This document shows positions 51,703 to 54,298 of a stretch of DNA of 64,000 nt, one piece after another (position 1 is the first letter of the stretch; each line of letters begins with the position of its first letter). Under the pieces are notes generated by a model that saw only the letters and a list, made by a program, of their open reading frames with translations, searched no databases and was not told the origin of the DNA. The DNA comes from a virus. The stretch is taken from UHGV virus genome UHGV-1362809; one strand, written 5' to 3'. The position numbers were made by a program, and so were the translations under genes.

Positions 51703-51913
51703 TTTTAACTCCTAAAAAATACAAGTCAACTAATGTATATTTACACCATCGAAAAATTCATAATATTGGAAATTTCAAGACAAAAAATACCCCGCCAAAG
51801 GGGGGGTGCCGCGCAATGGGGGGGTTTATTATCCGAACAAAGAGAGGATATACGTGGATAAAATCCACGGCAATGCAAGACATAGAAATAGGCGTTTTAA
51901 AAGAAGAGTTACA

Positions 51914-52340
51914 TTGTTCTGTTTTGAACCAGTAGGAATTATTGTTCTTTAGAACAATTTTCCGAATGGTTCTTCTTAGAACATTTAAACAATAGGAAAT
52001 ATATTAAACATATATAAGCAACTAACTTAACGGAGTTAAGTTAGTTGATAGTCCCCAAAGGGGACTTTCTACTATATTTAATTTCATCAATTTAACTGGT
52101 TTGGAATTATATAAAGAATCAATAGGATTAAGAATCAATAGGAACCAAAAGTGTCTTATATAGTAAATTGGACTAACTGTTCTTTAGAACAAATTTGTCC
52201 AAGAATATTTATTAAACTAGAATATGTATTTGTTCAGTAAGATTCAAACTATCTAATTGTTCAAATATGTCTTTAGACTAAATTGAACAGGAAATATAAT
52301 TAAAAACATGTTCCAATGGACTGTATTGTTCTTTAGAACG
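51914..52340. repeat. iteron cluster: at least 5 copies of inverted repeat GTTCT-N2-4-AGAAC (4 with 5-bp arms; 3 as TGTTCTTTAGAACA) plus AATAGGA direct repeats
   Basis: tgttctttagaaca at ~51943, 52189, 52327; ggttcttcttagaaca at ~51968; gttctgttttgaac at ~51916; caataggaa/caataggatt at ~51991, 52120, 52133, 52350. Confidence 0.7.
52020..52070 (+). promoter_or_regulatory. 12-bp perfect palindrome (aactaacttaac-gga-gttaagttagtt) followed by GC hairpin gtcccc-aaa-ggggac plus T-rich tract (terminator-like on the plus strand)
   Basis: Direct reading of 52020-52070. Confidence 0.45.
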
Positions 52341-54298
52341 AATTAGTCAAATAGGACTTAGTAGATCAAATGTATTTTAGTAACTCTTTAGTATGTCTGT
52401 ATTGGGTCGCTAACGCCTTAGCTCCACGCCCCCGAAAAACGAGTTTTTCTCCTCTACATCTTGGCTTTGAGCGACTCCAAAACCATTATTTTTAGTAGAT
52501 TTTCTGCCGTTTTTAAAGACACTGCCCCTATCTGCGCCGCCTCTTCCCTTCCAATTCTCTGTAAAGATGAAAAATCGGTCAACTATTCTGTACTAAAGAG
52601 TTATGAATGTTGTTTTTCACCAATGTTGCAAAGGCGTTACTTTGCCGCCTTATACGAGGTGGGTGTTTTAAGGGGAGAGACGCCCATTGGTGTATGTGCA
52701 AGTACACCGCCAGGAACGTATATCGCTATACGCTGCGCAAAAAGGGTTTCCCAGATTTCCTAAACTATACAATAGATTGGATTATTGTAATTTGCACTAC
52801 GACAGGGGCATTAACAGGCTGTTTGGTGTTTATCCCAAAGTAAGGCGGTCCGGCGGTACCTTACAAAAACTGCTCATCCATTTTTACATAGACGCTATAT
52901 ACGATATGGTGTCTTCAATCATATCGCAAAAACAAGTTGCCAAGCATCCTAATGCCAGTTCAGCTCGGCACGTTCTCTGTGTATAACCAAATACACAAAC
53001 CCGAATATATTTGTATGTTCCTCACCTGTTTTCACAGGATTACCTTCTTCGTGCGGGTAGATAAATAGTTATTTTCTACTTATAGGAGGTTTTTAACTAC
53101 GGGTAAGGTTCTCTTAATATAGCATGTATTTTACGAGATTTATAAAAGGGATTTAAAAAATTGTACAAGGTTTTATTTGCTTGAAGTACAGTGGAGGAGA
53201 GCTTTCTTCACGTTTTTTATTCCAATCCGCTACTACAAAGTTCCATATATACGACACAACAATAGTTTTCTGTGTACTTTTTTAAATATATTAGAAATAT
53301 GACCTATATTAAGTGCTACTTGAGAAAGTCTGTACATCTCTTTTCTTCTGCCTGACCTACTACGTTGTAACTATTCCGCATAGGTATTAGAGGTTGCTTC
53401 GCCGTCCCCCAATTTGGTGTATCTGTACTGTGTAAAAATACATTGTTAGGCATTATGCTTGACTCATTATAAACAAACTCAGTGTTTTACTCCAGCGTTT
53501 AACCCTTCGCTAATCCATTTAACGATTTTTACGTCGCTTTGTTTACATGTAATCTCACATTAGTTTTGTGAATCCACCTTTATTATTTCAGCCGCTCAGT
53601 ACGTCCCTGGCAAACAAAGTATCTGCTCCGTCGACGCCTGGCGATATGGTTTTTATTATCTATTAAATTTTAATATCAGAGAAGAGCTATCGCTCAACCC
53701 CAAAGTTTATATATCCATATAATAATGTTATCTGCCTTATTCAGGACTTTCCGCCATACTCGGTTGACAGTAACCTAATTTAATTAGGCTCATCTCTGGT
53801 TCTATGTATGTATACTATAAATTCTCGTGACGTTTGATTGCTTAGTTATAGCCCGTTATACAACAATATAATATATCATCATATATTAGGCTAGCCTTAC
53901 GGTACAACCAACGATTATGCTGTTTTCCTGTCCGATTATCAGCCGCCGTCATAAAATTTATAGCCGAAATCAATCACGCTTCGTACCATTTTATTATGAG
54001 ATGTATTTAATGGTAGTTACCGTTGCCGTAGAATAAATAATTCCTTGAAGCACACGTACATCCAACACTGGACATATTGTACAACGTACAACAGCTGTTC
54101 GTATTGCAGATATATCTCGTATAGTATCTTAGCCTAAAACATATTTTTAAGGATTTAAAAATACTACCAGTAGAGATAACTCTGCTCAAACCGATTGTAG
54201 CTACAAAGCTAAATCTTTGCACCTAAAATTGGTCTGAGGGTTGGTGATAAATGTCACCAACCCATAATATAAATTATTTACACCACTAATATAAATTA

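Follow-up and report, generated by a model that had tools for sequence, protein, structure and literature searches.

In phage lambda, antitermination by the N protein at its nut sites involves boxB, a short hairpin on the transcript, and the put RNAs of HK022 are a factor-independent variant of this antitermination. The lambda operators OL and OR each consist of a cluster of three palindromic repressor sites, with looping between the clusters. Transcription is also linked to replication origins: T4 oriF and oriG combine a promoter with a downstream unwinding element and an R-loop primer, and ColE1 uses the structured RNA II as a preprimer. GOLLD and ROOL, finally, are large, ornate non-coding RNAs associated with phages and prophages. 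Here we analyse a locus that recalls each of these systems in part, a 2.6-kb gap free of open reading frames (ORFs) at positions 51703-54298 of a 64,000-nucleotide stretch (the window) of the virus genome UHGV-1362809. The left ~700 bp of the gap, about a quarter, form a repeat region with palindromic sites and terminators, and the rest is filled by a candidate structured non-coding RNA. We tentatively read the repeat region as a factor-bound transcription gate at the boundary of two gene modules, with a probability of about 0.45.

The first-pass annotation had placed the repeats at the head of the leftward gene array, as a candidate replication origin or operator hub with iterons. This position has to be revised, since minus-strand genes continue from 54299 to 61188 and the site is an internal gap. 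Upstream of the gap the array encodes a clamp loader, an SbcC-like protein and FEN, and downstream a Cas4-like nuclease, DNA polymerase, a gp32-like single-stranded DNA-binding protein (SSB), UvsX and DnaB. Read on the minus strand, i.e. in gene orientation, the end of the RNA block at ~52405 is followed by site cluster A, a direct repeat with TATAAT and TAAATATA, terminator 1, cluster B, a 7-bp hairpin, terminator 2, again TAAATATA, AGGAG and the ATG at 51702 of a gene for a 183-amino-acid protein. The repeat region is AT-rich, and its GC content of 23-27% over 52000-52375 is the minimum of the neighbourhood. Stop-codon reassignment was ruled out as the source of the ORF-free gap, as read-through of TAG, TGA or TAA opens no long frame, and small plus-strand ORFs at 51733-51952 were discarded because their frames hinge on the variable length of a G run.

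The dominant repeats of the region are palindromes. Exact copies of GTTCTTTAGAAC are located at 51944, 52179 and 52328, all three within 396 bp, and a motif search over the 64 kb confines the sequence to this region, with no further match even when one mismatch is allowed. With the flanks included, two copies read TGTTCTTTAGAACA and the third TGTTCTTTAGAACg, the 14-mer of the latter ending in G and not in A. All inverted-repeat sites described earlier are thus present, although the claim that three of them are exactly the same is slightly overstated owing to the differing flank. Two looser sites, GTTCTTCTTAGAAC at 51969 (GTTCT-N4-AGAAC) and GTTCTGTTTTGAAC at 51916 (GTTC-N6-GAAC), were also known from that annotation, which overlooked a sixth, composite site at 52258-52289 (TGTTCAA..GTCTTTAGAC..TTGAACA). 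The latter is the fourth member of a repeat family and has outer arms TGTTCAA/TTGAACA around the inner GTCTTTAGAC.

Cluster B (51916-51982) comprises three sites with centres 26-27 bp apart, namely GTTC-N6-GAAC at 51916-51929, ATTGTTCT-TT-AGAACAAT at 51941-51958 (site 1) and GTTCT-N4-AGAAC at 51969-51982. Cluster A lies on the RNA-block side of terminator 1 and consists of site 3 (52319-52348, with the minus-strand reading GACT-N5-GTTC-TAAA-GAAC-N5-AGTC), the composite site and site 2 (52168-52202), an extended palindrome of the form TTGGAC-N4-TGTTCT-TT-AGAACA-N5-GTCCAA. None of these features is assigned to a strand. Four isolated TGTTC/GAACA half-sites are found at 52232, 52310, 51835 and 52142. 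In both of the 350-bp bins spanning 51800-52500 there are 8 GTTC/GAAC half-sites, roughly four times the background (window mean 2.0 per 350 bp, standard deviation 1.5); no other bin reaches 8, and the site cluster is unique within the ~84 kb examined. A perfect palindrome with 11-bp arms, AGAACTGCTTT-AA-AAAGCAGTTCT, is located at 41996-42019 in the 5′ part of the GATase-QueC gene and carries AGAAC/GTTCT ends as in the sites, in the opposite order.

Direct repeats play a minor role. The first-pass annotation spoke of iterons; in the strict sense, as several initiator-binding repeats of 17-22 bp in the same orientation, these are not found in the region, where the sole direct repeat is a tandem of 2 x 16 nt (TCCTATTGATTCTTWA, 52112-52143), the second copy of which carries one base change in every other strain. 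The AATAGGA repeats noted earlier are present in four copies, two of them within this tandem; the motif is only mildly enriched (24 observed against 15 expected).

We then compared the region with its relatives, all of which were obtained through exact-protein look-ups. The first-pass annotation had regarded absence from related phages as an argument against function; the repeats are instead kept at the equivalent position in eleven strain-level loci and in the 77% relative L017. The strain-level loci, 96-100% identical, each contain exactly three copies of GTTCTTTAGAAC at the same relative positions. Relative to the 96% strain L019, sites and double hairpin of terminator 1 differ at 6 of 149 positions and the rest of 51900-52400 at 37 of 352 (Fisher p = 0.02), with no difference in the 47 positions of terminator 1 itself (52019-52065). 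Of the five GTTC..GAAC sites, four are retained in L019 with changes in spacers and flanks only: site 1 and the 51916 site have changed spacers, and the core of site 2 is identical in all strains and L019. The fifth, at 51969, loses its left arm without compensation. The composite site is identical in L019 and kept in L017. The L017 contig ends at about window position 52230 and reaches two sites only, both of which are kept in surroundings that are otherwise 53-73% identical. At site 3 it reads GACC-N5-GTTC-TTTAA-GAAC-N5-GGTC, with the core arms kept, the spacer longer by one nucleotide and the outer arms changed in a compensating manner. TGTTC sites are absent from the 59% relative L016, which carries five abutting AT-rich palindromes of its own in tandem at the same intergenic position.

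Short palindromes arise easily in AT-rich non-coding DNA, and AATAGGA, only mildly enriched, is not kept in L017. Chance or neutral evolution is nonetheless a most improbable account of the region as a whole, because an exact 12-mer occurs three times in 396 bp against an expectation of 0.65 per 64 kb and because the sites are kept across strains and the 77% relative and are significantly less diverged than their surroundings. For the TGTTC sites and hairpins we regard this explanation as all but refuted; it may still apply to the AATAGGA repeats. The repeats are real and conserved, and almost certainly functional.

The GC-rich elements of the region are better read as intrinsic terminators. 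Terminator 1, which may be bidirectional (52019-52065, minus strand), consists of two hairpins with T-rich tails on both strands. The first, described before as a perfect 12-bp palindrome, is present with perfect arms of 13 bp (52019-52047) and is the longest perfect hairpin of the window. The second is the GC hairpin reported earlier, GTCCCC-NNN-GGGGAC (GTCCCCAAAGGGGAC, 52051-52065). The double hairpin has a folding energy of -26.3 kcal/mol (z = -5.34), and 52047-52019 is flagged by a terminator scan. Terminator 2 (51781-51807, minus strand) has the form ACCCCCCC-UUU-GGCGGGGU followed by AUUUUUUGU, i.e. a hairpin with U6. The two G7 runs, likewise confirmed (51800-51806 and 51818-51824), are the C-rich arms of this gene-strand terminator; the first is used in the stem and the second can pair alternatively with the same partner, as is apparent from the gene-strand reading CCCCCCC-AUUGCGCGGC-ACCCCCCC-UUU-GGCGGGGU-AUUUUUUGU. 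At the position of terminator 2, the 70% relative L013 carries a similar element, CCCTACC..GGTAGGG with TTTTTATTTTT. The hairpin-plus-T design recurs at other operon ends of this phage, and both terminators fit it. In gene orientation, copies of the 14-mer motif precede each terminator.

Among 99%-identical strains the G runs range from G7 to G11, and three independent contigs (L011, L012 and L013) end inside the run; either the terminator is truly hypervariable or Illumina sequencing has introduced a poly-G artefact. In terminator 1, GTCCCC-NNN-GGGGAC has an AAA loop in the window and in L003, L006 and L008, and a TTT loop in L004, L009 and L010, corresponding to a small inversion between the hairpin arms that leaves the stem intact. 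Between cluster B and terminator 2 a further hairpin, CGTGGAT-AAA-ATCCACG (51853-51869, 7 bp, no strand assigned), is kept in all strains and L019.

Promoter-like elements are found next to the terminators. Upstream of terminator 1 a segment at 52073-52143 (minus strand) combines the 2 x 16-nt repeat with a perfect TATAAT at 52106-52111 and TAAATATA at 52073-52080. A second -10-like element, TAAATATA(CAT) at 51736-51743 (minus strand), is located ~34 nt upstream of the ATG of the 183-amino-acid gene, which has a putative ribosome-binding site AGGAG at 51709-51713 on the same strand. A similar element, TWAATATAMAT, precedes the first gene in L013 and L016, and the TAAATATA 8-mer is also found upstream of the plus-strand gene at 61236. 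The palindromic sites do not overlap the best of these elements (52106-52111, 52073-52080 and 51736-51743), and cluster B is separated from the 183-amino-acid operon downstream by at least 190 bp that include a terminator.

From this arrangement we infer binding of a factor, the type of factor and a gating function. The repeated TGTTC-N4-GAACA units, with their weaker GGAC/GTCC outer arms, would be the binding sites of one sequence-specific factor, probably encoded by the phage. This factor would control both the passage of transcription arriving from upstream through the two terminators and the firing of the local promoters. The gene directly downstream of the proposed gate is the first one of the DNA-modification and replication block. 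In favour of a gate, the three copies occur only here, are conserved in the strains and L017 and are less diverged than their surroundings; motif copies precede each terminator, and L013 has a terminator at the same place. The palindrome array of L016 in the same intergenic position argues in the same direction. An abrupt change in synonymous-site composition at the gap, described below, would be expected if the flanking units are expressed under different regimes.

The factor could recognize the sites as hairpins on the transcript, comparable to N and boxB of lambda, or as a classical duplex operator, and we lean slightly to the former. The asymmetric spacers of all six sites share one polarity, with a predominance of A on the gene strand (four of them UAAA, the others UAAGAA and AAAACA), which runs counter to the regional A>T bias of the plus strand. 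Spacer length is not fixed (4, 6, and one more in L017) while the arms are kept. As RNA in gene orientation, site 2 reads UUGGAC..UGUUCUAAAGAACA..GUCCAA and folds with -12.1 kcal/mol (z = -3.0), and its U.G pair becomes C-G in L019. Together with the covarying outer arms and the motif copies ahead of each terminator, these observations argue for strand-specific recognition of a transcript or single strand.

Several points weigh against the gate or its hairpin form. The four isolated half-sites cannot form hairpins and fit duplex recognition better, for which the two clusters of three, resembling lambda-type operators, also speak. The core stems are short and AU-rich and would be marginal as RNA hairpins without the outer arms. 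Both forms fall under the gate reading, and a sequence-only analysis such as ours cannot separate them. Promoter type depends on the host, and the promoter assignments are consensus matches whose frequency is no higher than in shuffled sequence. The relatives represent three divergence levels only. A binding protein was not found: the flanking and small window proteins give no DNA- or RNA-binding Pfam or PHROG matches and include no helix-turn-helix (HTH) or ribbon-helix-helix repressor domain; to our knowledge, there is no reliable profile for small arginine-rich antiterminators. The AlphaFold model of the 214-amino-acid neighbour is unusable (pLDDT 39), and the protein has no PDB relative by sequence.

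Hairpins that act on the transcript without a dedicated sequence-specific factor are an unlikely alternative to the gate. They would serve as 3′ stabilisers or as RNase III-type processing sites that part the large RNA from the downstream mRNA, and part of the region could be a separate small RNA of ~290 nt (~52066-51781) composed of the hairpins. The fold z-scores are strongly negative across 51780-52380, cluster B as a single strand forms one nested 75-nt hairpin (-24.1 kcal/mol, z = -5.15) with an interrupted stem of ~23 bp, and interrupted stems of this kind are cut by RNase III in T7. A promoter-like element just upstream of the double hairpin, a terminator that closes the unit and the retention of arms at varying loop size would agree with this explanation. 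However, palindromes give negative z-scores on both strands, so that fold statistics cannot discriminate RNA from DNA, three identical 14-mers and the enriched isolated half-sites point to sequence-specific recognition beyond pairing, and L019 breaks one arm in cluster B without compensation.

Sites that are local, repeated and palindromic might also serve a different purpose at the DNA level, in partition (as a centromere-like element), packaging or recombination, and the AAA/TTT loop flip shows that inverted repeats recombine here. The outer TGTT...AACA loosely recalls what we take to be the 16-bp parS consensus, TGTTNCACGTGAAACA, the likeness being limited to 4+4 bases. No ParB, terminase or recombinase gene adjoins the sites, a ParB-like domain is found in none of the scanned proteins, and the long contigs break ~17 to 200 kb upstream in gene orientation, none of them at the region. 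We consider such a function quite improbable.

The base composition of the genes on either side marks the gap as a boundary. The coding-strand AT skew at third codon positions averages -0.19 in the 61 genes left of the gap, of which only 3 small genes are above zero, whereas all nine minus-strand genes at 54299-61188 have values of +0.03 to +0.23 (Mann-Whitney p = 3e-6). At four-fold sites the skew is -0.29 on the left (from 461 on), +0.02 at 54299-61188 and -0.34 beyond, the last value being based on 15 plus-strand genes beyond 61.2 kb, including those at 9628-21704 of L022. The step is kept in the 59-96% relatives, with +0.11, +0.03 and -0.07 in the middle blocks and -0.23 and -0.30 on the left. 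These data fit a coding-strand bias with a second strand bias that flips at the gap, of the type that replication or long antisense transcription would cause. They fit equally well a middle block that simply lacks the coding-strand bias. Under either model the gap is a long-lived boundary between two regimes, which favours a boundary or gate and would also be compatible with an origin, without proving either.

A replication origin, one of the functions first suggested for the repeats and the main rival to the gate, is a doubtful though serious candidate. The AT-rich 350 bp with their palindromes would be the unwinding and initiator-binding region, and by analogy with T4 oriF/oriG and ColE1 transcription from the neighbouring RNA gene might open the region or prime synthesis. 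The GC minimum lies here, the site cluster is unique in ~84 kb within a T4-like replication and recombination neighbourhood, a palindrome array is also present in L016, and the AT skew fits a coding bias plus a replication-type bias that flips at the gap, and not at 61.2 kb, in the window and its relatives. The cumulative GC skew, by contrast, falls monotonically through the site without a switch and reaches its minimum at ~61.2 kb, where transcription diverges; by a criterion of the first-pass annotation this counts against an origin, and a 54.3-61.2 kb block without coding-strand bias would account for the AT skew equally well. An origin based on DnaA boxes was rejected, as a single 8/9 match in the region (TTATCCACG, 51853-51861, within the 7-bp hairpin) is one of 42 spread over the window without clustering. 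There are no direct-repeat iterons in the region, and no initiator or DNA-binding domain is matched in Pfam or PHROG by the neighbouring 183-, 63-, 214-, 219- and 102-amino-acid proteins. Terminators are the simpler reading of the G runs and hairpins, and T4-like replisomes largely use recombination-dependent initiation. The proposed origin or operator hub therefore stands in so far as the repeats are non-random, conserved and located at a polarity and composition boundary, and is weakened by the lack of a recognizable adjacent initiator or HTH gene. Should the locus be an origin, it would provide a defined one for a T4-like jumbo phage lineage.

The most unexpected result is the remainder of the gap, which lies outside the coordinates considered in the first-pass annotation. 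The block at ~52405-54205 (minus strand, ~1.8 kb, boundaries approximate) is a candidate for a large structured RNA, or several, transcribed leftward and without a known family. Its GC content is 37-47%. From ~54115 to 52410 the window and L017 are 80-90% identical, as compared to 66-80% for the adjacent FEN and 214-amino-acid genes, and L017 and L018 (75% protein identity) have at least 2.1 kb of ORF-free DNA after their 214-amino-acid gene. A hidden protein gene in 52405-54205 was ruled out, as the alignment with L017 shows no 3-nt periodicity and many 1-2-nt indels.

We predicted the structure from the window sequence alone and then tested it on L017. In the minus orientation 45 compensatory double changes are found, compared to 6-14 when the partners are slid by 1-3 nt, i.e. 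about four times the controls. The plus orientation yields 32 compensatory changes, and broken pairs number 110 in the plus and 84 in the minus orientation. Among pairs common to both orientations, variants of the G.U type outnumber those of the A.C type by 16:5, and in most bins of the block the minus orientation has the lower local fold z-score. The best helix, 52686-52670/52550-52533, comprises 15 pairs with 6 compensatory changes and none broken. Since the block is best supported as made in gene orientation, the palindromic sites lie in its 3′ flank.

Promoters for this RNA were sought on both strands. The candidate TTGAGC-17-TGgTAGTAT at ~54150-54183 was rejected because its -10 element lies inside a covarying helix, for which reason the 5′ end of the block is not defined. 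A rightward sigma-70-like promoter at 52272-52300 for a plus-strand RNA was also rejected, both because its spacing differs in L017 (17 versus 20 nt) and because covariation and G.U evidence favour the minus strand. On the upstream side, the hairpin at 54238-54263 (minus strand, -17.7 kcal/mol, z = -4.1) is the likely terminator of the upstream operon after the 214-amino-acid gene, and its stem is remade in L017 by multiple compensatory changes (GGGTTGGTGA/TCACCAACCC to GGTCGGTAAC/GTTACCGACC).

No Rfam 15 family matches 52405-54205, none reaches the gathering threshold in the 64 kb, and a search of 51600-54400 to E<=5 gives chance-level matches only (E >= 0.59). The gap contains no tRNA and no tmRNA. 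A literature search returned nothing on large non-coding RNAs in jumbo phages, and one on the motif returned unrelated primer sequences only. Should the block be a single RNA, few non-ribosomal structured RNAs known from phages would be larger.

Another ORF-poor stretch, ~1.4 kb long, is located among plus-strand genes at 15555-16942 of L022, corresponding to ~67.2-68.6 kb in window numbering and thus beyond the window; it lacks TGTTC palindromes, is not similar to the first gap and matches nothing in Rfam. The 299-nt ORF-free gap at 29922-30220, downstream of the UvsX-like gene, contains a long-range inverted repeat (GCGTGTATTAC ... GTAATACACGC) and a local hairpin, and likewise gives no Rfam match.

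The RNA and the palindromes could be joined in a single scheme, in which all 2.6 kb of the gap would form a replication origin that depends on RNA. The ~1.8-kb RNA would then be transcribed into the palindrome field as a preprimer or origin-opening RNA, acting like ColE1 RNA II or the T4 oriF transcript at several times their size, the TGTTC palindromes would bind an initiator, and the AT-skew flip would mark the two fork directions. Taken as a whole, we think this scheme improbable.

The window is part of a ~237-kb metagenomic jumbo phage from gut or sewage. The 267- and 183-amino-acid proteins that flank the gap are encoded identically on 234-237-kb contigs in several ENA, JGI and Logan assemblies, and coordinates 160,001-224,000 of the JGI contig match the window. 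No DNA match to the window was found among GenBank phages, IMG/VR and the JGI metagenome collection yielded no relatives when scanned with proteins, and exact conserved 24-27-mers gave nothing in viral, metagenome and GTDB genome collections. The topoisomerase IB shares ~30% identity with its counterparts in Pseudomonas, Ralstonia and Xanthomonas jumbo phages. The window encodes a T4-like replication and recombination set with DNA polymerase, gp32-like SSB, UvsX-like recombinase, DnaB-like helicase, clamp loader, SbcC-like protein, FEN/RNase H homologue and Cas4-like nuclease, together with NrdD and a 7-deazaguanine pathway (FolE, GATase-QueC fusion).

The UvsX-like recombinase domain (residues 1-301 of the gene product of 30221-33037) is fused to a ~640-amino-acid C-terminal extension that matches an uncharacterised PHROG, and two paralogous homing-endonuclease-like genes (phrog_3339; 16718-17962 and 24053-25243) are inserted among the replication genes. 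An N6/N4 DNA methyltransferase gene at 59444-60191 is split into two ORFs (95 and 140 amino acids) in the window strain and is one intact gene of 248 amino acids in L003, L004, L006, L009 and L019. A gene for 506-512 amino acids between the GTP cyclohydrolase I gene and the 473-amino-acid gene, present in L003 (13746-15284), L004, L006 and L012, is missing from the window strain (~47798-48031).

How does the locus compare with described systems? The Gram-positive LexA (Cheo) box GAAC-N4-GTTC has the same tetranucleotide half-sites and the same N4 spacing, and was rejected as a model because the half-site order is reversed here (GTTC-N4-GAAC); GAAC-N4-GTTC is absent from the region, where the nearest GAAC-to-GTTC spacings are N13, N14 and N21. 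With T4 oriF/oriG and ColE1 the locus shares an AT-rich segment directly downstream of a putative structured non-coding RNA gene, T4-like replication genes including an RNase H/FEN homologue, and a compositional polarity step. It differs in the size of the RNA (~1.8 kb versus roughly 0.05-0.55 kb), in the lack of a GC-skew switch and in that the RNA would have C runs, and not G runs, at the G/C-run element, a composition that disfavours R-loops; moreover, the candidate origin is known from sequence alone. In comparison to GOLLD and ROOL, the RNA block is ~2-3 times longer, has no Rfam match at E<=5, is known from two diverged lineages, too few for a consensus structure, and might represent several RNAs. 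Like these RNAs, it is long, GC-enriched relative to the genome, ORF-free and carried by a phage, and it is more conserved than the neighbouring genes, with compensatory changes.

For the repeat region itself the lambda systems are also close counterparts. Unlike the sites of OL/OR, those described here are 26-85 bp apart and not abutting, have N4 or N6 spacers and miss the best promoter-like elements; no repressor or HTH gene was found adjacent to them, and the window gives no sign of a temperate lifestyle. As in OL/OR, two clusters of three palindromic sites belong to one family, lie a few hundred bp apart, are graded in quality and occur nowhere else in the sequence examined. The N/nut system differs in having one site per operon compared to six here, where the stems are AU-rich, neither a boxA-like element nor an N-like protein was found, RNA binding is only putative and the phage is T4-like and jumbo, not lambdoid. 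The locus would be a compact switch, in which one motif is present at six sites together with two terminators and candidate promoters, at a change in synonymous composition and at the junction of the recombination/clamp-loader and DNA-modification/replication blocks, in an uncultured jumbo phage, a group whose control regions are almost unmapped. Any protein partner of the sites, which might bind the RNA as well, would naturally be sought with the repeated 14-mer. As in lambda N/nut, near-identical short putative hairpins with a 5-bp stem and a purine-rich loop are repeated upstream of terminators and located between early units and downstream genes, and in both systems the loop and its protein would be expected to co-vary between lineages.

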